Assembly (NCBI GenBank): GCA_945879065.1
Contig: CAMCUU010000003.1
Coordinates: 2,079-66,078 of the forward strand
Length of the DNA stretch: 64,000 nt
From: Francisella tularensis subsp. holarctica
GTDB taxonomy: Bacteria; Pseudomonadota; Gammaproteobacteria; Francisellales; CACEW01
Direction: 5' to 3'
Shown here one piece after another: positions 2,996 through 48,197 of the stretch. The position numbers and the translations under genes were made by a program. The notes under the pieces were generated by a model. The model saw only the letters and a list, made by a program, of their open reading frames with translations, ran no database searches and was not told where the DNA came from. Each line of letters opens with the position of its first letter. Position 1 is the stretch's first letter.

Positions 2996-5962
2996 TCAAG
3001 CAAACAAATCAAACCCTACTGACCCCAAGACGCTCTCTTCTTTTTCAGCTTTCTCCCAGATCCCACCGGCAAAACAATAAGCGCCTCTTTGGTAATGGCT
3101 TTTAATTTCCCGTTTCCACTGACGCTGTGCTTCACTTTTAATGTGCATTGAGTCTTCTATGAAATAGTCTCTAGGTAAGTTCATCACCTCCGCCAAGATC
3201 ATAGAAAAACGCAGTTCAGGCCGGGTGTACTCTTTAAACATGTCACCATATAACCCGAATAGTTCATCAAAAAGAACCCCTTGATAAGCCTCTTTAAACA
3301 AGCCCTCTTTTTTCATAGCCAGTCGTTTCAATTGATTTTGAAGATCAGAGACTGCCGTAAAAATATCGGCCCAAGATTCTTGGATATGGGCTAGACACGT
3401 TTTTTTAAGGGCCTTTAAAAAAGAAAGCCAATCCGTCTCTATTTTAATTTCCGCCGTCCTATTTTTCTCTTGAATCTGAATCAAACTTCTCGCCCAAGAG
3501 ACAAAATAAAGGTAATGATGATTGCTGGTCGTCATGACCGACCCGCTTAAATCTTTCAGAACAAGCGCTTCACATCGCGCCGCCAATTTTTCAAGATCAA
3601 TGGCATCAAAAGCTAAATAAACTCTTTTTAAAAAAACTTCAAAACGCTTAAACCCTTCATACATCGCCGCATCTTGAATGGATTTGATTTGACGAGAGCG
3701 AGACGCTAATGCTGTGTGAGATTGTCTTAATGTTTTTAAAATTTGAAACCAATTTGGCTCTTTAGCTAAGAGCGCTCTTTCGGTCTCCTCTGGAATCAGT
3801 CTTTGAATCAGACGATCTTCCATAGATAAAACAGAAATAACTTCACCTGGATTACCCTGTCTTGCCACTCGACCATCTGCCTGCTGCCCAACACGCTCAT
3901 GGTTTTCAAAAAAAGTTTTAATGACTTTATATAAACCACGAATATCTGCCCCCCGTGTCGCAATATTGGTCGCGATGGTAATCGTTCTAGGTAATCCCGC
4001 TCTCCCAATAATCACCTCTTTGGGCTCGTCTTGATCGTCATTCAGCAATTGATGAATCAGACTCTTCGATTTTAAAAACGCAGAAAATTGTTGTGTGGCT
4101 TCAATGCTTAAAAACAAAACTAAAACAGCCTGTCCGAGCCCTAAAGCTTTATTAATTTCTAATAAAATTTCTGAATAATGCGCCTCTTTAGTCATGCATA
4201 GCCTTGGCTCCAGGGTGGTTCTAAGACAGGGTTGATGAGTTGGAATATCAAAGCAGTCCACCCCATAAATTTCTCGTATTTCATCTCGTTCAATAGACGT
4301 TCCCAGCGTTCCACTCACGCCAAATAGCACAGAGGCAAAATTTTTGATCAGCGCCAAATTCGACATCGAAGCCATGGTCATGGTATGGCATGTGGGCTCT
4401 AGACCTTCTTTGACCTCTGCAAACATATGGGTGAATCCATTCCAACGAGAGTGGGTTTGACGCGCCCCCGTGTCTTCGAAATCCATGATTTCAACTTTAG
4501 GCCCGGAGGTATATTTCTTAGCGACATAATGCGTTCCCCTGGTCTTTTCAAAACAGACATCTTTGGCTTGTTTTAAATAAACATGCATCAGTACATCATT
4601 TTTAAGCTTGCCGGCTGTTTCGGCATAAGCGCCGTCTTCAGCTTCTGCTAATTCCTGTTTTATTTTGAGAAAAACTTTCTTCCAACCCTCATCACTACTA
4701 ATGGCTTTTTCATACTCTTCTGCTGAGGCATATTGACTCATGAATTTGTACAGGGGTTTCACCATCCAAGTCCTTTGCTCAAAAGGTGTATGGGCAATTC
4801 GAGCCGCGGACCCTGCTGCGTCAATCAATAGATTGTCGACTTCATCAATAAAAATAACGCGTGGCTCTCTAGGCATTTGTTGTTTCTTGGGATGCTTCAG
4901 TGCGTCCCCCATCAAGATAAAACAAAACTCTGAAGTCGTTCCATAAAGAATGTCCTGGTCATAGTGTTTAACCAGATGCCGGTTATTACACACATGAAAA
5001 CTAGTCACACCCAAACTGTCATGAAAATCTTTAAATTCTTCGTAATCTCGCACGGTTAAATACTCAGAAGAAGTAATCATATTGATTTTAAGCCCACAGC
5101 ACGCAATCAGCGCTGCAAATAAATTACTGGTTAAAGACTTTCCCTCCCCCGTTTTAATTTCCAGCAGCCGACCTTCTGGATTTTTTAAGAGGGCAAAAAT
5201 CGCAAAGACCTGCTCGATATAGGGAAATTTTCCGAGCTTCAATTTCCCAAGACAGGCAATCAGCGCCAGTAATTCGCAGTGCTCTGGATTGAGCCCACAG
5301 GGAAGCTGAGTATTTTTTTTAAATTTGTCTCGAAGACGTGAAATTCCTATTTGTAAAACAGATAAAGGGCTGTGGGAATAAATATCTGCATAGTGTTTAA
5401 AAATCTCATATTCCTTGGCGATTTCTATGAGATCTTCTTCTGGAAGAGGAAATTTTAAAAGCTCTGTGGGTGTCAAAAAAGACCCCATTGCACGCTCAAT
5501 TTCTTCTGATTTCGTCTCTCCCCCTGCGGGAGAGACAGCCGAAGATGGCAGAGCCATCGGAGGCAGAGAGGGGGGGATTTCAAAATCAAATCTCCCTGCT
5601 TCAGCCTCCATCGCCCATCTTTCTGCAATACCAATAAACCCAGAAATAGTTTTAATTAATTTTAAATTTTCCAGATCAAATAATTTTAAAAAACAGTCCA
5701 TGCCGGCTTTAAGTTTTAATTCACAGGCTGACTGAATAAATTTCTCAGGTTGATGATTTAAATCCTCATGGACAGGATCAGGATCTTTGATTTTTAAAAA
5801 AACACACTCAGCATAAATTTTGGCCATCTGAATCTTTTCAGGATTGCTTAAAATTTTTAATCGAACTTGTTCTAGTTTTTCAAAAAAAATTTCTAACAAA
5901 TCTTGGCTGGTTCTATCTAAGCTTTGCGCTTTTTTTAATACTTCTTTTTTAAACTCACGCAT
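2996..5962 (-). CDS. SecA-like DEAD-motor ATPase, highly divergent, with unique N- and C-terminal regions
   Basis: Motifs: KTGEGKS (Walker A), VIFIDEVDNLLIDAA (SecA FAIVDEVDSILIDEA), GVSGTLGT (GMTGTA), TIATNIATRGADI (TIATNMAGRGTDI), DGRVARQGNPGE (RGRSGRQGDPG). The ATG at 5962 has AGGAG 9 nt upstream and overlaps the giant-gene stop (ATGCGTGA). The ORF track starts at a TTG at 5968. Confidence 0.8.
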   Translation of the reverse strand: MREFKKEVLKKAQSLDRTSQDLLEIFFEKLEQVRLKILSNPEKIQMAKIYAECVFLKIKDPDPVHEDLNHQPEKFIQSACELKLKAGMDCFLKLFDLENLKLIKTISGFIGIAERWAMEAEAGRFDFEIPPSLPPMALPSSAVSPAGGETKSEEIERAMGSFLTPTELLKFPLPEEDLIEIAKEYEIFKHYADIYSHSPLSVLQIGISRLRDKFKKNTQLPCGLNPEHCELLALIACLGKLKLGKFPYIEQVFAIFALLKNPEGRLLEIKTGEGKSLTSNLFAALIACCGLKINMITSSEYLTVRDYEEFKDFHDSLGVTSFHVCNNRHLVKHYDQDILYGTTSEFCFILMGDALKHPKKQQMPREPRVIFIDEVDNLLIDAAGSAARIAHTPFEQRTWMVKPLYKFMSQYASAEEYEKAISSDEGWKKVFLKIKQELAEAEDGAYAETAGKLKNDVLMHVYLKQAKDVCFEKTRGTHYVAKKYTSGPKVEIMDFEDTGARQTHSRWNGFTHMFAEVKEGLEPTCHTMTMASMSNLALIKNFASVLFGVSGTLGTSIERDEIREIYGVDCFDIPTHQPCLRTTLEPRLCMTKEAHYSEILLEINKALGLGQAVLVLFLSIEATQQFSAFLKSKSLIHQLLNDDQDEPKEVIIGRAGLPRTITIATNIATRGADIRGLYKVIKTFFENHERVGQQADGRVARQGNPGEVISVLSMEDRLIQRLIPEETERALLAKEPNWFQILKTLRQSHTALASRSRQIKSIQDAAMYEGFKRFEVFLKRVYLAFDAIDLEKLAARCEALVLKDLSGSVMTTSNHHYLYFVSWARSLIQIQEKNRTAEIKIETDWLSFLKALKKTCLAHIQESWADIFTAVSDLQNQLKRLAMKKEGLFKEAYQGVLFDELFGLYGDMFKEYTRPELRFSMILAEVMNLPRDYFIEDSMHIKSEAQRQWKREIKSHYQRGAYCFAGGIWEKAEKEESVLGSVGFDLFA
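5512..5576 (+). repeat. palindromic in-frame element, type A, copy 1 (inside the SecA-like gene)
   Basis: Sequence tcgtctctccccctgcgggagagac...ggcagagaggggggg. Translated as PSLPPMALPSSAVSPAGGETKS. Confidence 0.85.
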
Positions 5963-8900
5963 GCTCAAACACTCCTGAAATCTCTCCGCCTTTTTTCTTC
6001 GCCAGTCTTTTCGGTGTCATCATCTGGCTATTTTGAGTTTCTGGATTGGCGCCCAGGCTTAATAATTTTTTGGCTAAAAAGACGGATCCTGTTTTAACCG
6101 CTTTATGCAGCGGCGTATTCCCTCGTTTATTTTGCCGATCTATTTCAACGCCCATGTCACACAACAATCTAAAAGATAAGAGCGCCTGATATTTGACTGA
6201 AAAGTGCATCGCTGTATTGCCTTTAGAATCTATCGCCTCTCGATCAATCCCCGCTCCTAATAATAAATTTACCGCCTGATCAGCTTGATTGATGACGGCA
6301 AGATGCAAGGCACTGCGCGACTGTTTTTTATCTCTGGCATCCACAGGGAAATTGATTAATAAGAGCTCTCGCAAGACATCTAAATTATTTCCCATGGCCG
6401 CTGCGAACCAAATTTTTATTTTAATTTTTATAGTGGTTGCCACATCCAATCCACAGACTAATTGAGCCAGCTGAGGTACTTCGCTGGACATCACCGCTCT
6501 TTCTAAAGCTGTTGTTTTAAATGCATCTTTTTTAAGAACATGGGCCCCTAGATTTAATAACAATACGAATGCCTCGTACTTGCCAGCAATTGCGGCGATA
6601 TGCAGCGGAGTGAACAAGAATTTTCTTCGAACAGCATCCACTTCAAATCCATTCGAGACTAATTCAGGCATCACGGTCGTTGAGCCTGAAGCTGCAGCCA
6701 GGTGCATGGCCGTATTTCCCTCTTTATCCACGCGATGCGATTCATCTCCAGGATTTAATAATCTAAGCAAGGGCAGGCAATCACTAGCAGCGGCAAGCAT
6801 CAGCGGCGAATGCCCCAGCCTATTTTTGACTCGAAGCGCGATGTCACTCATGTGGATATATAGCTCCAGCGCCAGCGCTTGATGCTTATTGATCAAGGCA
6901 TAATGCAAGGCTGTATTGCCAAAAATATCTTGATGATTAGGACTACCTCCACTTGAAATTAATAATTTAACCAGTGGCAAGCTCCCCATTTCTGCTGCAA
7001 GTATTAAGGGCGTTTTTTGCTGGAAATCTTTACTTAATGGCACACCTGCACTTAAGAAAAATTTGACTAGATCCACAGACCCTGAGATTACGGCGACATG
7101 CAGCCAAGACGAGCCATCTGAAAAATTTTGATTTTTAAGATCAGAATATTCATAAGCCAGTTTTAAAAACCACGCATGATGCAAGGCGCTCGCAAGATCC
7201 AAAGCACTAGGCCCACCGAGTTTGCTGATAAAATTATAAGCATCTAAAACACCCCCGCGTGGAAAAATGCGCTGTAGTAATAAATTAAACCAAACGGTCA
7301 CTTTTTTCTGATCTCCAGACATCGCCATATGATGAAAAATAGTGAGCCCCTGATCATCTTTCTCGAGCCGGAGATAGGGATTTATTTTTAAGCTGGAAAT
7401 CACCTCTCGATCATCTGCTTTAAAAGCCGTCGCAAGGGCAATCCCCAGTTCGGTTGGAGCCTTCAATGAATTCAATCTTATTTCATGTTTTTCTATCGCC
7501 CCGAGTGTTATCAGCCATTTAACTTGTTCTTGATTGCCAGATTCAAAAGCCGCTTTTAATCCATCACTTAAAGCAATATCCCCCAGAGCGCATCCAGTTT
7601 GATTAGTAGATAGAATTTGCTGTCTTAATTTTTCGACAGGGATTGCTTTTAAAATGTCATAGCCTGCTGATCTCCCAACGCGATCCGCTTCTAAGATATC
7701 TTTTAAAATTTCAAACCAGCCATGTTCGATCCAATCTTGAATAGAAGTAATTTTAAATAACGCTTCTAGCCCAGCCTTATCATTATTCTTCAGCAAGATT
7801 CGATAGGCGTTATTGTCATAACTCCAATTAGGTGAATTTTCTTGATGCTCATACAGATTCACGCCCTGCTCTTGAAAATATTTAAACAAATGGTGATGCC
7901 CATACTGCGCGGCGATATGAGTGGCTTTGTTATATTTTATGAGCTTATGAGTTGCTGAATAACTCACCTCGCCGGCTTCCTGAAGCCGTTCGCTTAAGAC
8001 ATTCGGTGAATGCTGGACGATCAGATCAATCACTGATTTCCGACCATTGATCACTGCCGCTAAGAAAGGATGAAGAATATGCTGACGTCCACCGCCCTCT
8101 CCAGGTAAATAGGCCAATTCATTGGGCTTTAAATATTTCAGCACTTCTCGAATGCAGGCTTTACTGCCATAAAACGCTGCCCAGCTGAGAGTGGTTTTCA
8201 TTTGCTTTGTAAACTCTTGACCTGACCACTTGGGTTTAAATTCAGCGATGTATTTTCTGAGCCACGCAAGATCATCGGCTCGGATTCGCAAAGTTTTAAG
8301 TCTCTGAGCATCTGTCATTTGATCTTGATGTCGTCTCTCCCCTTGTGGGAGAGACGGGCCCGAAGATGAAATCGAGGGACAAAAATGGGGCTGAACCCAA
8401 GCAGCGCCTTTTTTCTCCAGCATATAAACCAATGCCAAATGCCCATGAGATAAAGCAATCGCCAAGCTCGAAGATCCATTAAATTCCAGATGGGGCAACA
8501 GCCCCAGTTTCTTAGCTAAAGCTTGATAACGCTGCAGCTCCCCATGCGCTAATAAATAATAAATATAAGAGCGCCCGTCTTGTCCTAACTTAAGCGGCGA
8601 AACACCTCGAGCAATTAAAAGATCAGCGACAGACCAGAGTCTTAATTTCGCAGCCAATAAAAGCGCTGAGTCAGCTTTGGATTCATGAGCACCTCTTATA
8701 GAAATTTCCGCGGCGAGAAATTCAGCCATCTCCAGGTGGACTTGTTTCAGGGCCATTAAAATCGGTGTTTCTTGATCCAAAGTTTCCAGATCAACATTGG
8801 CACCCCAGTCATCTACTAATAATTTAACCGTCTCTAAATACCCTGCTTGAACAGCCAAATGCATGGCTGTTTTTCCAGACTCTAGAGCCTGGTCAACATC

Positions 8901-11900
8901 AATAGAATTATCAGAACGGCTGAGCATGGCTTGGCACACGTCTGTTAAGCCTCGTTCAACGGCCAAGTGAAATGCCGTCGCACCATCGGATTTTCTTTTG
9001 AGTGTTAAATTCGCACCGGCCTGAATTAAAGCCTCCGCGACTTCTTGAAGTTCCAGCATCACCGCTAAATGCACGACCGACATGCCTGTATCTAAAACTA
9101 GATCTAAATTAATTCGCCCAGCGCCTTTTTGAATTAAATCCAAAGCGGTCTGGACATGAGATTCTTGAATGGCGATATACAACGGAAATAGCCCATTGGG
9201 TAAACAAGCATTGAGATCTTCCCCCGCACTGATTAAGCCGTCTATATATTTTAAATTCGCTTCAGAATCTCCGGCTTCTGCGGCTGTGATTAAGGGTGAT
9301 TTTGGTAATTTATACCCCTCTCTGCCCAACAGGCCTGCGGCCAGTCGGTCTGTCTCTCCCGCAAGGGGAGAGACGAAATCATGAAGGAGAACCCCTGGAA
9401 ATAATTTCAAATAATCCATGGGACTTAAGGCCATCTTCGGCAAAATCCCCATTGAAAATACAGTGTAAGACTGGCCTTGATACTCAGCCGACCTTAAAAA
9501 ATCCCGACCTAAATTCACCAGCTTTAAATCATGCGCGGGTAAGCTGACTGAGCACCCACCCACGACTTTGGCATGAGAAGGGCAGGCGTCGAAATATTCT
9601 TGATCCCCAATCTCAAGCGTTGACGCAATGTAAGAAAATTTAATTTTTGATCCTTCAAGCGCTGCTCTTTCCAGTGATTGTATCGGCGTTGGAAGTTCCA
9701 GACGCATCTCTGCTAACAGCGCAAGACGCTCGTCTCTTATTCTCGAACGCTCACCTTTAAAATCTAATCGCAAGGCGGCAATGATCTTTTCGCCATTTGC
9801 TAAAATTTCAGCACGAACAGAGGCTTTATCAACTTCTATTTGCGCTTTAAACGCTCGAATATTTTCTTGATTAAGATCTAAAAGATGCGCAGGAATTTTT
9901 GTTAATTGAGCCTTAGATTCTGCTTCTATTTCTTTTAATTCTTTCGCAATTTTTTCCTGAGCTAATCTATTAATTTCTCGAATGCTTTCAGCCAAGGGCC
10001 CACGAGTTTCTCGCGTAGATTGAGGAAACTCTTGTGTCTCTTCTAAAAACTTCGCTCTCACGCCAGCCTCTAATTGATTGAATAAATCAGAGACTTTAGG
10101 CCGCTTGCTAAAATCAGAAGCCAAACTAGAGAGCCCCCACTTACTTCGCATTTTTTCAAACGCGCTCATCATCGACTCTCGACGCTTCTCACACACAGCC
10201 TCTAACAATTCTTTGAAATCTTGTATCGCCGATTTTTGATGGGCTTCAAAAATTTCTGGGTCTTCTGATCTTAAAGATTCCCCCACTTTATTTAATAAAA
10301 TCTGAGTCATCACTTTTTCTAAAGCCAGACTTAAAAGCCTATTTGAACCAACATTAATCTCTAATGTATGACTAGGATCTTCGAATCTTTTAATAAAAAA
10401 GTTATTTAAATAACTTAATTCTAGAGGGCTTAGACCAGAAAAAAATTCAGCCAAATTAATTTCAACCGGGATTTTTTTATAAGCCCTGACAGGGATATGT
10501 GGAAATATTTCAGGGATCCCAACTTGAGTTCTTGCACTCTCTGGCAAGCTGGGAAGCTTAGGAATAAAACCGCTTTGTTTCAGGGTATTAAATAAATAAG
10601 AATAAAAGCTAATCAGCCCTAATAATTCAAAATATTTTTTAAATAAGGGGATCTGGGGCATCTGCGTTTTAATCCGCTCTGCCATACGCACATAGAGTTT
10701 TTTTACTTTTTCATAGTCTTCAGGATACTCGCCATGTTCGGCCTTATATTTTTCAAGATAAGCCTTGTAATCCGGCATTAAATCTATGGTGTACTCGACG
10801 TCGAAATACGGCTTAATTAAAAAAGTTCGAGTCTTGGGATCAAATAGAAAACTCTCTTCTTGCTTGGCAATAATTCTAAAACTGGTCATGTATTTCATGC
10901 CGCCATAGGGCGAAGTATCTGACCCAGAGGCCCGTTCCCCCAGCTCTTCTAAACCCATCTCCATGCTTAATTCGCGCAAAGATTTATAGGTAAAACCTAA
11001 ACCCTGCTCACGGCAGTATTTTTTCAAATCTATTAAGTTAGCTTTTAAATAATCAGGATCTGAATTTTGATCTCTGGGCCAAGCGTCTAAAAATTCTTCG
11101 CTATATACAGCTCCATTGAGAAAGCCTTTCATCATGACATCAGATAAAGCCGCGACTCTTCCCGCTAAGTTATTAAAAGCTGGATGGTGAACGGGGTACA
11201 TATTGGACTGCTTATTAAAATGCAAAGAGAAAAATACGAAAGTTTCTTGCACCAAGGCGGCATAGGCGACCTCGTGCTGAATTTGCAAATTTTCTGCTGG
11301 CGTAAAACTTAAGTGTCCCGGTTTTAAAGAGACCGCAAAATTAAAATCTTTGATTTCACCGCGATCTAATAAATCTTTTAACCCTTCAATCACACCGACT
11401 TTAGTGGCTACCCCACCGATATCCCCTCTTAAGCCACCGAGTCTCGGGATATTACTCCAGGGTGCCGCATGAGAGGCTTCATAGGAAGAGACTAAACCGG
11501 TTGATCTTAATAAGTTCACAAAGTCTCGAAAATCTCCGCCACCGCTCCAGCCATGGCTACGACATTGTGAAGCAAATGTCGCATAGGCATCCCCAAAACT
11601 GCCTCGATAAAAAGCCTGGTTCTCATAGGCTGCTTTTGCAAGATTTCGCAGCTCTTGATCAAAAGGCCGACGTGAACGTCTGTTTAAAATAGACCCTGCG
11701 CTAGGGCCGAAACTAGCGCCTGGCGCTTGGAACCAAGAGGGCTGACCGGAATAGTAACTGGACTGACTTAAAGACCCATAAATATTGGCAGGGCTTAAAT
11801 ACGAGACGGAACTTTTACTAGCCTCAAATCTAAATTGATTCTGCTGACGCCAGGTATCTATGGGGCTTACAAATCGACTTTGCTGTTGCTGTTGCGCCCA

Positions 11901-44822: not shown

Positions 44823-47800
44823 CTAAGTTGAACGGCCTCTACTTTTTGACATCGACTGACTCTCCGAATCACCCGACCCAAGCCTCCGCTCAATTTTCCC
44901 CACCCGATCCAACGCCTCCCCCATCACATCCCTGCTGAGGGTTCCCTGTTTCATCGCCGCTCGAATCTCTGCTGTATCCATTTGTGAAAGCATTGGAACA
45001 TCGGCCTGTTCAGACAGCACATTCCAACGCTCAGGATTTTTTAATTCCTTAACGAGGCCACTTTGTTCTTGCTCAATACCCTCTATTTTTTCATCCAATG
45101 ACTTTTGAAGCGCCTCATCTTCTAAATAATTAAATTTCTTGATGCCGGCTTCCATGTATTGTTCATCGAGATCAAACAATCGCTCCATTAACTCAACCGA
45201 ACTCTTATTTTTATAAAGATCCGGCTTAGCATGCTTGGTGGCCTCATCGATGATTTTATTAATTTCTCGCATTTCCACTGAGGCTAATTTTGCTGATCTT
45301 AAAAGCATGGGGTAATGTGCCGCTCTTTCTTTTTCAATTTCACTTGCCATTTTAAAAGCCTTATCAAAATCTTTTCTCTGAATCGCATTGACCAGAGAGC
45401 TAGCCCTCACTAACCTCTCGTGCGCCTTGGAATCACGTTCCAATCTCTCCGGGCTTAAGCGGTTTTTCTCAATCGCCACTGCCAATATTTCCTTGTTTTG
45501 ATAGATCTCATGACCCAAGGCGTTTTGCTTAATTTTCAGCTCTTGGAAAGCCTCATAGCCTGGATGATCCCAGAGTTTTTTATCTGATTCTAAAGAAGCT
45601 TTGAGCTGGAGATATTCCGCCCGAACTTCTTTTGAAAGATCCGCATAAGCCGCGACTTTTCGAGCCTCTTCTCGATGAAAGATTTTATTTCCTGGCTGGA
45701 GCACCCGCTCTGAAACCCGCTCCAAATAAGCCTGGTAATTAGTTAAATAGAGCCAGCTATCAATCACTTTATCTTTCAAACTAATTTTTTGAGCTGCACG
45801 ACGGGCTGATTCATCTGCATCAAATCCACGACGAATACCAAACCCCAAGGGGTAATCAATAATGGCGTCTTTAATCCCCACTCGAGATAAGCTGGTTTTT
45901 AAAGCGTCTAACGACCGATGAAATTCTTGAGAGGCGAAAATTTGAACGTTGGATATATGCCTCGACAAAGCCACGTAGGCTAAATGCCGATCCCAGCCAA
46001 AACCGTCAATAAGAACAAAAACTAAATTCTTTGTTACGCCCTGCGTCTTATGAACAGTCGCCGCATAGCCATAAGTAAAATGCTCATACTCTTTGGCTGA
46101 GAATTGAATGGTTTTTCCATTGTCTAATCTCACCGAAATCTGGGATCCAGAAATAGCTATCACAGAGCCGAAGCTACCGTTCCTCACACCCAACTGCTTA
46201 TTATTTTTTAAGAATAAGAGCCTCTCATTGACGCCAACTTCTAATACCCGGCCATCCAATTTGAAAACCTTCGGATCCATGATCCAGCTTTGTTTTAGAA
46301 TTTCTTCACGGGCTAGAAGATTCAATTCAACGACGCTCTTATTTTGATGCGCCAAAATAATTCGGTTCGGTAAATTCTCGAGACTTACGTCACTCGCCCA
46401 ACGGCTGACTAAATCTTTTGAGCTTTTTGCTTTATCTTCTGCAAAATGAATATGTCCGGCTTGATGGTAATAATCCAGCGCCCTTCCCGTCTGGCCATTG
46501 GATAGGTCACCCGTTGCAATGCGATGCGCTTCAATTCGTTGCCTCAGGATTTCATCCATTTCAACAAAGGGTACAGTGCTCATTAAAGATTTAAGCCCTG
46601 ACCCTGCGCCTAAGGATTGAGTTTGCTCCAGGTCCCCAATGACGGATAATTTTGAACCTGTTTTTGAAACAAGATTAACTAATTTGGCCATGTCATCACT
46701 GTCCGTCATACCCGCTTCATCCATCACAACAATGTCATTGGCATCTAATTTTAAATAGCCCCGCTCCAGGCGATATTTAAAAGCGTGAATCGTATTTGAA
46801 CTAATCCCGGCATCATTTTCTAATCCTTCTGCCGCAATGCCTGATAAAGATATTCCATGGACTTTAAACCCGGACGATTCCCAAATGTCTTTGGCGACTT
46901 TCATCATATAAGTCTTACCAGTCCCTGCTTTACCGGCGACTAAGCTCAAATCTCCACCCAAGACAATCGCTCTCAGCGCCTTCGCTTGAGAGTTATTCAG
47001 GCCATATTCCGAAATCTTCTGTTCAACAAGTTTCTTATTCACAGAATGCGAATATTTCAAAGACAGCTTCTCAGCCTGATCCAACATCTTGGCTTCTTGT
47101 TTAAACCGATAAATGGTTGTGTAGTGATCTCGGCCGTCTTCACCCACGCCCAAATTAATTAAATGCTCATGGGCTTTAACCTTAGCAAAGAGATTTAAAA
47201 AATCTTCATGGGACTCAGCGCGTTCATGAAGTATTTTTTGAATATCCCGCTCTGAAAAAACGGCATGCTTGGCTTCTAAATTTCGAACCAATTGATCAAT
47301 CTCAGCTTTAGAAATCTCGACCTTCTCAGGCAAGTATTTATGAATTTCATAGGCTAAATGATGAGCATGAAAACGCTCTTGAGTCTGGGCCATCTTATGC
47401 AACAAGGCCTCAGGATTTTCATGAATATGGGCATAATTTTGAGATCGAATCTCTTTATTCATGGCAATGCGTTCTAATTCAATCCCGCGTTCGTTCATGT
47501 TTTTAGTGCCAATGCCTTCATGGATACTGGGCTGAAGATCCACGCCTTGATCGACAAAACTGCGATGATCAATCTTGGTCTCAAATCCATGGCTCTTAAG
47601 ATGCGTATTGGCATAATTGGCCCATTGAGCTCTTAGCGAATGCAAAAATTCTTTTTTATTCCATTCAACAACTTTTAAGCCAAAGCCATCGGCTAATAAC
47701 TCTCGCATAGTCAGCATGACATGCACGTGAGGATTCCCATCCTCCCAGTGAATTGCGAAATCCGCGATCATTCCTTTCTGAACAAACTGGTCTTTTATAA

Positions 47801-48167
47801 AACTTCTAGCTAGCGCTAAGTTTTGATCTTCATTGAGCTCAATGGGCAAAGAAAATTCAAATTCACGGGCTAATTGCGAATCTTTTCTTTTTTCAAATAA
47901 TTCAACTTTGTTCCAAAGTGTCTCTGAGGCTAGGTGAGTTTTTTCAGAATCGATTTCTGAAGAAACCGCCAAACTTTTCACCCATTGAGGCGAACTCTCA
48001 GGAACCATCACTTCGCAATGAATGACATTTTGTTTACTCGAATAATTATGAGTCTCTCCTAAATATTCATCGAACATCTTGGCGGCATGACGATAGGCAG
48101 CCGCTTTTACGACACTTCTGCCCTCTGAACGCTTAATGATTTTTGCTGTGAAGTGATAAATGGCCAT
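44823..48167 (-). CDS. traA: conjugative relaxase, Ti-type TraA (MobA/MobL N-terminus + TraA/RecD-like helicase)
   Basis: MAIYHFTAKIIKRSEGRSVVKAAAYR and HWEDGNPHVHVM (3-His motif). Helicase Walker A GKAGTGKT and VVMDEAGM. The start is taken at the conserved MAIYH rather than the upstream ATG at 48197. Confidence 0.85.
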   Translation of the reverse strand: MAIYHFTAKIIKRSEGRSVVKAAAYRHAAKMFDEYLGETHNYSSKQNVIHCEVMVPESSPQWVKSLAVSSEIDSEKTHLASETLWNKVELFEKRKDSQLAREFEFSLPIELNEDQNLALARSFIKDQFVQKGMIADFAIHWEDGNPHVHVMLTMRELLADGFGLKVVEWNKKEFLHSLRAQWANYANTHLKSHGFETKIDHRSFVDQGVDLQPSIHEGIGTKNMNERGIELERIAMNKEIRSQNYAHIHENPEALLHKMAQTQERFHAHHLAYEIHKYLPEKVEISKAEIDQLVRNLEAKHAVFSERDIQKILHERAESHEDFLNLFAKVKAHEHLINLGVGEDGRDHYTTIYRFKQEAKMLDQAEKLSLKYSHSVNKKLVEQKISEYGLNNSQAKALRAIVLGGDLSLVAGKAGTGKTYMMKVAKDIWESSGFKVHGISLSGIAAEGLENDAGISSNTIHAFKYRLERGYLKLDANDIVVMDEAGMTDSDDMAKLVNLVSKTGSKLSVIGDLEQTQSLGAGSGLKSLMSTVPFVEMDEILRQRIEAHRIATGDLSNGQTGRALDYYHQAGHIHFAEDKAKSSKDLVSRWASDVSLENLPNRIILAHQNKSVVELNLLAREEILKQSWIMDPKVFKLDGRVLEVGVNERLLFLKNNKQLGVRNGSFGSVIAISGSQISVRLDNGKTIQFSAKEYEHFTYGYAATVHKTQGVTKNLVFVLIDGFGWDRHLAYVALSRHISNVQIFASQEFHRSLDALKTSLSRVGIKDAIIDYPLGFGIRRGFDADESARRAAQKISLKDKVIDSWLYLTNYQAYLERVSERVLQPGNKIFHREEARKVAAYADLSKEVRAEYLQLKASLESDKKLWDHPGYEAFQELKIKQNALGHEIYQNKEILAVAIEKNRLSPERLERDSKAHERLVRASSLVNAIQRKDFDKAFKMASEIEKERAAHYPMLLRSAKLASVEMREINKIIDEATKHAKPDLYKNKSSVELMERLFDLDEQYMEAGIKKFNYLEDEALQKSLDEKIEGIEQEQSGLVKELKNPERWNVLSEQADVPMLSQMDTAEIRAAMKQGTLSRDVMGEALDRVGKIERRLGSGDSESQSMSKSRGRST

Positions 48168-48197
48168 AACGCCGAGCACTCTACATAAAAAGCACAA

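Follow-up and report, generated by a model that had tools for sequence, protein, structure and literature searches.

Seven palindromic sequences in and beside a giant ankyrin-repeat gene are copies of a non-autonomous repeat of about 65 nt, a member of the CGTC-tagged class of REP-like repeats, which has spread to some 60-65 copies within a genus of uncultured freshwater bacteria. We consider it probable, at roughly 78%, that these seven copies are explained by insertions of a selfish repeat into pre-existing flexible linkers and loops, filtered by selection. Under this explanation insertions would land anywhere, and selection would discard those that break the fold or the reading frame. Insertions that preserve the frame would persist, helped by an element that lacks stop codons in every frame, and the surviving copies would be those in flexible linkers or surface loops. 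The favoured frame would supply a small flexible peptide, V-S-P-x-x-G-E-T, which is the same in either orientation because the hairpin is palindromic. After insertion a copy would either be kept intact or decay in frame, through partial deletion, by exchanging its second hairpin for one of the GTAG type, or by flipping its orientation.

The window examined here is the whole 64-kb stretch of DNA. Scanning with the core pattern TCGTCTCTCCCC-N4-GGGAGAGAC returned seven matches, at 5512, 8331, 9352, 12095, 13979, 14884 and 16768, and none in the remaining 52 kb of the window, where shuffled sequences also lead one to expect none. The corresponding copies of the two-hairpin, CGTC-tagged repeat span 5506-16798. 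With the genome-wide total of about 65 copies in 1.95 Mb as base, the presence of seven within 11.3 kb has a Poisson probability of 1.6e-7. Six are carried by the giant gene, a 3903-aa ORF on the minus strand (5955..17666; ORF list and translation), and one by the neighbouring minus-strand gene for a SecA-like ATPase of 990 aa (2996..5968; ORF list, translation and Pfam), which overlaps the end of the giant ORF by 14 nt. Judging from the intact 3903-codon frame, the copies are probably translated. Copies 4 and 5 show the same 1884-nt spacing as copies 6 and 7; a hidden duplication behind this spacing was rejected, blastn and tblastx similarity being confined to the elements, and it is treated as coincidence.

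The giant protein runs from an N-terminal region with a hydrophobic helix through an N-domain, four tandem repeats, a cassette and a disordered REP-rich linker to a helical module, a Gly-rich hydrophobic segment, a central domain, a coiled coil and an ankyrin array. Pfam assigns the ORF to ankyrin families only, and neither PDB sequence searches nor Pfam scans returned anything for the non-ankyrin modules. Orthologues of 3984 aa (P0003) and 3230 aa (P0004) were found, and in other organisms SecA_DEAD is fused C-terminal to the ankyrin part in a single giant protein.

A consensus derived from 65 aligned copies, taken from the window and a sister genome, begins with GA(T/A)(T/A)TC and continues with a 9-10-bp hairpin, GTCTCTCCC-N5-GGGAGAGAC, a second hairpin, variable in sequence but constant in its pairing, and a purine tail, CAGAGAGGGG. 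Every copy begins (T)CGTCTC(T/G)CCCC...GGGAGAGAC(G/A); the first hairpin measures 25 nt and the conserved unit about 65 nt, where CGTC-tagged REPs are units of 20-40 bp. Two-hairpin folds have z-scores of -1.1 to -4.0, and the predicted hairpins are stable. The family is concentrated in two congeners, with about 65 and about 59 copies respectively, against at most three in 39 other relatives and zero control matches.

Its first hairpin (T-CGTC-TCTCCCC...) carries the tag of the CGTC superfamily of REPs, and the type of second hairpin seen in copy 5 and in an orthologue from a metagenome starts GTAG-GGGCGG, as in the GTAG-tagged superfamily. Di Nocera et al. 2013 (PMC3733652) report that REPs occur inside genes, and that a dedicated transposase for CGTC REPs was not found. 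Unlike the repeats of these superfamilies, the unit described here is a composite of CGTC hairpin, variable hairpin and purine tail, some copies carry a GTAG-type hairpin in the second-hairpin slot, and inverted pairs flank DUF559 nuclease remnants (at least five pairs in the sister genome, bracketing a shared cargo of about 400 nt). The window has no Rfam match at the gathering score. The ends of the repeat, GTCTCTCCCC and CAGAGAGGGG, are mirror-related and not inverted, and the terminal inverted repeats of a MITE are therefore absent. No consistent flanking target duplication appeared among the 65 aligned copies, nor was an empty site with a clean target duplication recovered.

All seven copies fall in linkers or loops separating units that are independent in homologues, and AF2 models, conservation minima and alignments to element-free homologues agree with the suggestion in the preliminary description that copies survive only in disordered linkers. 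Copy 7 (16731..16798, element strand minus, complete, read as DFVSPLVGETAQQATGQLGREG) occupies aa 292-314, leaving a gap of 10 aa after the hydrophobic helix (261-282), the predicted TM helix that it had been said to follow. Copy 6 (14847..14914, minus, complete, read as DFVSPLAGETDLASEALTGQRG) occupies aa 918-940, past the fourth tandem repeat as described and 13 aa (39 nt) ahead of the cassette. Copy 5 (13973..14050, plus, degenerate, read as GGHAGPPLQGGSAAGGETKS), described as closing a module at aa ~945-1205, directly adjoins the end of the cassette at aa 954-1210; it retains its first-hairpin half, and a GTAG-tagged hairpin (14008-14034) occupies its second-hairpin slot. Copy 4 (12089..12152, plus, complete, read as SPSLPTPAAPSVSPTGGETKS) falls within a Pro-rich hypervariable linker that joins the Gly-rich segment to the central domain, again where it had been placed. 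The linker placement of copies 7, 6 and 5 was judged solely from comparative module limits.

For copies 3 and 2 the structure prediction that had been proposed as a check shows low-confidence coil beside confident ankyrin repeats. Copy 3 (9315..9382, minus, complete, read as DFVSPLAGETDRLAAGLLGREG) forms a segment of pLDDT 33-46 adjoining the first ankyrin helices (pLDDT at least 89), in keeping with its reported position immediately ahead of the ankyrin repeats, and copy 2 (8325..8390, plus, its purine tail degenerate, its reading PHFCPSISSSGPSLPQGERRH in a third frame) forms a 22-residue coil of pLDDT 48-65 with ankyrin repeats above 90 on either side. These values come from an AF2 model built on a 29-sequence alignment (mean pLDDT 77); a first run on a 2-sequence alignment (mean pLDDT 46) was used as weak support only. 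Furthermore, all six flanks in the giant protein rank among the lowest 12-31% of 50-aa windows in the conservation profile, where they form local minima, and homologues at 25-32% identity show an alignment gap exactly at copies 4, 3 and 2. In the SecA-like protein, copy 1 (5506..5575, plus, complete, its reverse complement read by the gene as PPSLPPMALPSSAVSPAGGETKS) lies at aa ~133-155, upstream of the SecA_DEAD domain (aa 194-558). One placement has to be revised: copy 2 had been taken to separate two ankyrin blocks, but 'block 1' and 'block 2' form one continuous array in all distant homologues, and by this comparison copy 2 is a loop insertion inside the array and not a module boundary.

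Translation reproduces the frames reported earlier, with copies 7, 6 and 3 reading DFVSPL(A/V)GET and copies 5, 4 and 1 reading ..GGETKS; copy 2, in another frame, reads GPSLPQGERRH. Genome-wide frame statistics were computed on the sister genome (G001), where 11 copies are internal to ORFs of at least about 350 aa. Eight of the 11 use the VSP..GET frame, as do six of the nine outside this operon, and pooling the sister genome with the window gives 12 of 16 (P = 8e-4). Ordinary genes also receive copies; a 638-aa ORF in the sister genome, which we take to be heparinase-like, holds three in frame. Because the element is open in all six frames and VSP..GET prevails in unrelated genes of the sister genome, the shared frame is a bias of the whole repeat family.

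The same frame sharing had suggested that same-orientation, same-frame copies serve as portable homology, through which recombination deletes, duplicates or swaps modules in frame, and that the gene was built or is being remodelled in this way. We regard this as distinctly unlikely. Same-frame direct pairs are present (7/6/3 and 5/4/1), and modules between copies do exist separately elsewhere, as that proposal had asked: the N-domain in some 35 proteins of 198-460 aa that stand alone, and the cassette domain both by itself, in a protein of 188 aa, and as part of other large proteins. Copies 6 and 5 flank the single module polymorphism that distinguishes the orthologues, and in the sister genome small in-frame deletions have one end inside copies 3 and 7. 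Nonetheless, a three-way comparison of orthologues revealed no indel or swap with both ends in same-orientation copies. A segment of 552 aa (aa 850-1401; 13464..15119, minus strand) is absent from the sister-genome orthologue, and the in-frame 1656-nt indel takes out copies 6 and 5, but its ends lie in Pro-rich sequence beyond the elements, at a 4-nt microhomology, GCCT. Likewise, the cassette swap is flanked by inverted and not direct copies, and its left end is 39 nt beyond copy 6. In E. coli, RecA-dependent exchange needs roughly 23-27 bp to be efficient, more than the 12-20 nt of the longest exact match between direct copies, and the sharing of frame is family-wide.

Furthermore, homologues have the same junctions without elements at the sites of copies 5, 4, 3 and 2, the outcome that the preliminary description had named as speaking against its proposal. 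They include a protein from another genus, the homologues at 25-32% identity and an element-free paralogue on G000:C33, which runs in the order Gly-rich segment, Pro linker, central domain, coiled coil and ankyrin. These protein comparisons indicate that the module junctions at the four sites are older than the elements, which mark linkers; that the elements created the junctions is not supported. Some observations do speak for recombination, namely the cassette polymorphism bounded by the inverted copies 6 and 5, the flip of copy 2 between species and the breakpoints in copies 3 and 7; assembly or remodelling of the ORF by in-frame recombination between same-orientation copies is not supported. 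The mechanism itself has a parallel in enterobacteria, where imperfect dispersed palindromes are rare recombination endpoints: in E. coli a minority of the junctions of duplications contain REP copies (PMC1428787), and F'128 formed between REP sequences according to Kofoid et al. 2003, as cited in the same paper. In contrast to the arrangement proposed here, the documented cases are intergenic and not in-frame module joints, and the three orthologues contain zero copy-copy junctions.

Orthologous sites in the three genomes illustrate what becomes of the copies. Copy 3 is missing from the metagenome orthologue, and in the sister genome a deletion of 38 codons has cut it short. The metagenome orthologue carries copy 7 with another second hairpin; in the sister genome the purine tail is all that is left of this copy, and copy 4 is reduced to its GGGAGAGACGAAAAGC end. 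Copy 2 is flipped in orientation between species, with re-insertion as a possible alternative to inversion in situ; its CCGAAGATGAAATCGAGGGACA middle was rejected as a diagnostic of such an inversion, as it belongs to a subfamily that is common, G000 having 8 exact copies. Copy 1, however, has stayed intact and in place in all three genomes, matching the metagenome orthologue at 68/68 positions (flanks 83-88%) and the sister genome at 62/68 (flanks 69-82%), and copy 4 matches the metagenome orthologue at 66/68, with flanks of 69-88% across the genomes and copies compared. Three retained copies exceed their coding flanks in conservation. The preservation of copy 1 (68/68 against about 85% in the flanks, with a unique second hairpin) is not predicted by pure selfish neutrality.

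Such conservation would follow if the hairpins were selected as nucleic acid, retained for a role in the long mRNA or the DNA at domain boundaries, such as ribosome pausing for domain-wise folding or transcript stabilisation. The predicted stability of the hairpins and the superiority of copies 1 and 4 over their flanks are consistent with this, and the second hairpin of copy 1 is single-copy in the genome, so that gene conversion from other copies offers no explanation. However, other copies have disappeared from their orthologous sites or been truncated, overwritten or flipped there, copy 6 does not exceed its left flank in conservation, and the homologues have a viable arrangement free of elements at the sites of copies 4, 3 and 2. 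We find a selected hairpin function very improbable as the explanation.

The cassette itself (257 aa, aa 954-1210; 771 nt, 14037..14807, minus strand) has limits set by two independent comparisons. The metagenome orthologue has in its place some four additional tandem-repeat units, a stretch that is not homologous to it; blastn detects no homology between the two stretches, and a MAFFT alignment of them was discarded as spurious. Homology to the metagenome orthologue resumes at CDS nucleotide 3631 (window 14036), the inner edge of copy 5, and the left break falls in unique sequence beyond copy 6. The cassette is absent from the sister genome, and another genus has a copy with 51% identity at the N-terminus of a protein of ~2000 aa. 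Its position between inverted elements might mean that copies 5 and 6 mark, or once mobilised, an exchangeable domain cassette: copy 5 (plus) and copy 6 (minus) face outward with their CGTC ends outermost, the DUF559-remnant cargo sits in the same inverted-pair geometry, and G000 and the metagenome orthologue have unrelated sequences between these two copies. Yet we think this reading highly unlikely, as it is a single case whose left break avoids the element, whose replacement consists of old repeat units (66-75% identity to the first repeat block), and whose cassette is followed by the helical module within 10 aa in the element-free protein of the other genus, an adjacency that makes the cassette look ancestral in place.

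Insertion of a selfish repeat followed by selection thus remains our preferred explanation. The giant ankyrin protein would act as an insertion sink because it is long, fast-evolving and rich in linkers. With 7 of some 65 copies crowded into 0.6% of the genome, the clustering may nonetheless exceed what tolerance alone explains, and may reflect local hopping or targeting. More speculatively, the outward-facing copies 5 and 6 could constitute an exchangeable in-frame domain slot in a giant host-directed protein, the family occasionally driving domain swapping and the well-conserved intact copies being kept for swapping or for a role at the mRNA level. We consider this combination unlikely; if true, an inverted pair serving as a cassette slot would give bacterial effector-like proteins a new way of shuffling domains.

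In-frame insertions of both REPs and RPEs have precedent (PMC3733652), and the closest likeness is to the RPEs of Rickettsia (Ogata et al. 2000/2002, as cited in PMC3733652 and PMC10969869). As in Rickettsia, a short palindromic repeat is dispersed through a small genome, many copies lie in frame inside protein genes that are left intact, the extra peptide falls in loops or linkers, and presence or absence differs between close relatives. Here too the family is palindromic and dispersed, its copies stand inside intact genes, and the peptide occupies a loop or linker with the fold intact. The likeness is one of description, and the host is an unrelated freshwater MAG labelled Thiotrichales. Unlike the RPEs, the present element is shorter (~65 nt) with two hairpins and a purine tail, crowds six copies into one giant gene, and is strongly biased to one frame that is equivalent in both orientations.

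Overall, the family adds a well-documented example from outside Rickettsia in which selfish palindromic repeats are translated within proteins, and comparison of three genomes shows the fates of copies: intact, truncated in frame, with a hairpin overwritten by another repeat type, or flipped. It is also an instructive negative result, in that a shared frame and a boundary position look designed for recombination but result from a family-wide frame bias together with selection on tolerated insertion sites. For proteins without known domains, the positions of such repeats mark linkers and loops cheaply and reliably.

The pattern TCGTCTCTCCCC-N4-GGGAGAGAC, searched with up to three mismatches allowed, matches the window seven times between 5512 and 16792, where shuffled sequences are expected to give no match, and has no match in the other 52 kb. 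Copy 1 (pattern match at 5512) lies in a SecA-like gene of 990 codons (2996-5968; SecA DEAD and P-loop domains in Pfam), and copies 2 to 7 in a giant minus-strand ORF of 3903 codons (5955-17666; ankyrin repeats only in Pfam), whose end overlaps the start of the SecA-like gene by 14 nt. Once oriented and aligned, the copies of this ~65-nt element share a left end GA(T/A)(T/A)TC, a CGTC-tagged first hairpin of 9-10 bp, AG, a second hairpin whose sequence varies from copy to copy while its pairing is kept, and a purine tail CAGAGAGGGG, which is degenerate in copy 2. The copies fold as two-hairpin RNAs with z-scores of -1.1 to -4.0. In copy 5 the first half is kept and the second hairpin is a GTAG-tagged one (GTAGGGGCGGAC...GTCCGCCC); the element's two hairpin types match both the CGTC-tagged and the GTAG-tagged REP superfamilies set out by Di Nocera et al. 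(PMC3733652). The coding sequence also runs through GTAG-tagged hairpins at 12978-13006, 13648-13675 and 14008-14034, which are translated as QVRPYT or GGHAGPP according to frame.

The element is abundant in the window's own genome (about 65 copies in 1.95 Mb, 91 contigs) and in G001, the genus's only other species, whose label is 'MAG: Thiotrichales bacterium isolate RH-23may17-890' (about 59 copies), with 0 to 3 copies in each of 39 other relatives. Its clustering in the operon is real: seven copies occupy 11.3 kb against 0.38 expected (Poisson P = 1.6e-7). Exactly 1884 nt separates both copies 4 and 5 (12095/13979) and copies 6 and 7 (14884/16768); a hidden duplication was considered, and as the intervals share no other similarity we regard the equal spacings as coincidence.

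The preliminary description placed the copies at module boundaries of the giant protein. This holds, with one correction, and the limits are now fixed by independent comparisons. An exhaustive HMMER search, with aa 300-1420 as query, recovered an N-domain (aa ~373-544) from about 35 stand-alone proteins, 198-460 aa long; the cassette between copies 6 and 5 (aa ~975-1208) turned up by itself in a protein of 188 aa as well as in other settings. The N-domain is a separate 360-codon ORF in one other genus of the family, and in another a ~2000-aa protein has a 51%-identical cassette (aa 958-1211) right at its N-terminus. Copy 2 (8331) is the exception: the ankyrin array runs through its site in every distant homologue, so the two ankyrin blocks formerly told apart form a single array that carries a loop insertion. 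An AF2 model of aa 2640-3330 (29-sequence alignment; mean pLDDT 77) places copy 3 (9352) in a stretch of pLDDT 33-46 directly before helices of at least 89, and copy 2 in a 22-residue coil of pLDDT 48-65 with ankyrin repeats above 90 on both sides. When conservation is scored in 50-aa windows, the flanks of all six giant-gene copies rank among the lowest 12-31%. These observations, with the module limits, support the suggestion that the elements survive in linkers.

Several junctions exist without the element. A paralogous giant ORF on another contig of the same genome (G000:C33; open frame 3761 aa, central domain 41% identical) runs from a Gly-rich segment through a Pro-rich linker, central domain and coiled coil to ankyrin, and neither the ORF nor the rest of that contig matches the pattern. 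Homologues of 25-32% identity, from sources including Legionella, Candidatus Jidaibacter and chlamydiae, keep the same module order, and their alignments show simply a gap where copies 4, 3 and 2 lie. In the protein of the other genus a helical module begins within 10 residues after the cassette; in the window it begins 208 residues after it, past copy 5 and a disordered stretch. Homologues of the same architecture with element-free junctions, which the preliminary description had named as evidence against its own proposal, were thus found for copies 5, 4, 3 and 2, the copies covered by this comparison; no outgroup shares the junctions of copies 7 and 6. At four of the six giant-gene copies, these alignments indicate that the elements did not make the junctions, contrary to the proposal that the ORF was assembled through them.

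Only three orthologues of the giant protein were found among 5.8 billion proteins: that of the window, that of G001 (3230 aa) and a third from a contig of a lake metagenome (L049; 3984 aa, about 87-90% nucleotide identity). Copy 1 is intact in all three. Copy 4 is intact in the window and the metagenome orthologue, and retains one end only in G001, beside a different hairpin. Copy 7, intact in the window, is a first hairpin plus a GTAG-type hairpin in the metagenome orthologue and a purine tail only in G001; copy 3, also intact in the window, is absent from the metagenome orthologue and is truncated in G001 by an in-frame deletion of 38 codons, one end of which falls within the first hairpin. 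Copy 2 is complete and forward in G001, a forward remnant in the metagenome orthologue and in opposite orientation in the window, with the left junction GGTTC within 1 nt between window and G001; either an in-place flip of the 65-nt element or loss followed by re-insertion would account for this. Copy 2 (8325-8390 in the window, 8746-8816 on the G001 stretch L004, ~13550-13590 on L049) is in frame in all three genomes. At the L049 sites orthologous to copies 7 and 2, GTAG hairpins hold the second-hairpin slot; hairpins are thus being exchanged within resident copies.

No difference among the three orthologues joins two same-orientation copies. G001 lacks aa 850-1401, and with them copies 6 and 5, through an in-frame 1656-nt indel. 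Its ends share a GCCT microhomology, within Pro-rich stretches that lie 68 codons ahead of copy 6 and 170 codons beyond copy 5. Cases of REP copies at the junctions of rearrangements are on record, if rare (PMC1428787). In favour of some recombination role, small in-frame changes clearly concentrate at the elements, and the only module polymorphism is bracketed by two of them, copies 6 and 5. Between these, window and metagenome orthologue are unrelated: the former has the 257-aa cassette, the latter about four additional tandem-repeat units with 66-75% identity to the first block. A role for these two copies as a slot around an exchangeable domain would fit their inverted, outward-facing arrangement, and the same geometry in G001, where element pairs enclose a cargo of ~400 nt that includes the remnant of a DUF559 nuclease. 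We nevertheless consider it very improbable, as the cassette adjoins the helical module also in a protein without elements and the left homology break lies away from the element (the two sequences cease to be homologous 39 nt past copy 6, and are so again from the inner margin of copy 5). The G001 inverted pairs (L037, L038, L040, L045, L046) are a composite repeat family: each element is followed by a GTAG-type hairpin, around a ~250-nt shared core ending in the DUF559-like ...RVLRFWNHEIFK remnant; the family may hint at the mobilising enzyme.

Retained copies are more conserved than the surrounding coding sequence (copies 1 and 4; 5506-5575 and 12089-12152); others decay freely. Copy 1 matches the metagenome orthologue at 68/68 positions (flanks 83-88%) and G001 at 62/68 (flanks 69-82%); copy 4 matches the metagenome orthologue at 66/68 (flanks 69-88%). 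Since the second hairpin of copy 1 occurs once per genome, conversion from other copies does not explain its conservation.

SecA_DEAD is fused C-terminally to a homologous central-domain-plus-ankyrin protein in other bacteria (e.g. Candidatus Jidaibacter) and some protists. With SecA_DEAD and ankyrin joined in homologues P0010, P0020, P0021, P0025, P0027 and P0052, the operon's two genes (2996-17666) are one protein elsewhere, a natural fusion without involvement of the elements. At a distance of 27 kb from the operon, 44823-48197 encodes a Ti-type TraA/MobQ conjugative relaxase-helicase of 1124 aa, so an integrated conjugative element may make up part of the window.

Translation confirms the readings reported earlier, DFVSPL(A/V)GET for copies 7, 6 and 3 and ...GGETKS for copies 5, 4 and 1; copy 2 reads ...SLPQGERRH. 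All six element frames are open, so stop codons do not force the shared frame. Because the hairpin is palindromic, V-S-P-x-x-G-E-T is read from both orientations, and the two favoured readings are one. Every G001 copy was surveyed with its flanks, and VSP..GET is read in 8 of the 11 lying well inside long ORFs (6/9 outside the orthologous operon), or in 12/16 with the window pooled (P = 8e-4 against one third). A 638-aa ORF of G001:C2 (L009, 669-2585), presumably heparinase II/III-like by its sequence, holds three in-frame copies in three different readings, with GTAG-type hairpins (GGHAGPPL) also in frame. Uninterrupted identity between direct pairs is only 12-20 nt, below that needed for efficient RecA-dependent exchange in E. 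coli. With the absence of junctions between direct copies in the three orthologues and the family-wide frame, this speaks against in-frame recombination between same-orientation copies, and the view of the elements as recombination joints that assembled the gene is not supported by these comparisons. Frame sharing, being dominant among intragenic G001 copies too, is a property of the repeat family rather than of the giant gene, and most likely reflects which peptide is tolerated. The in-frame presence of such elements in protein linkers is RPE-like and of a kind already known.
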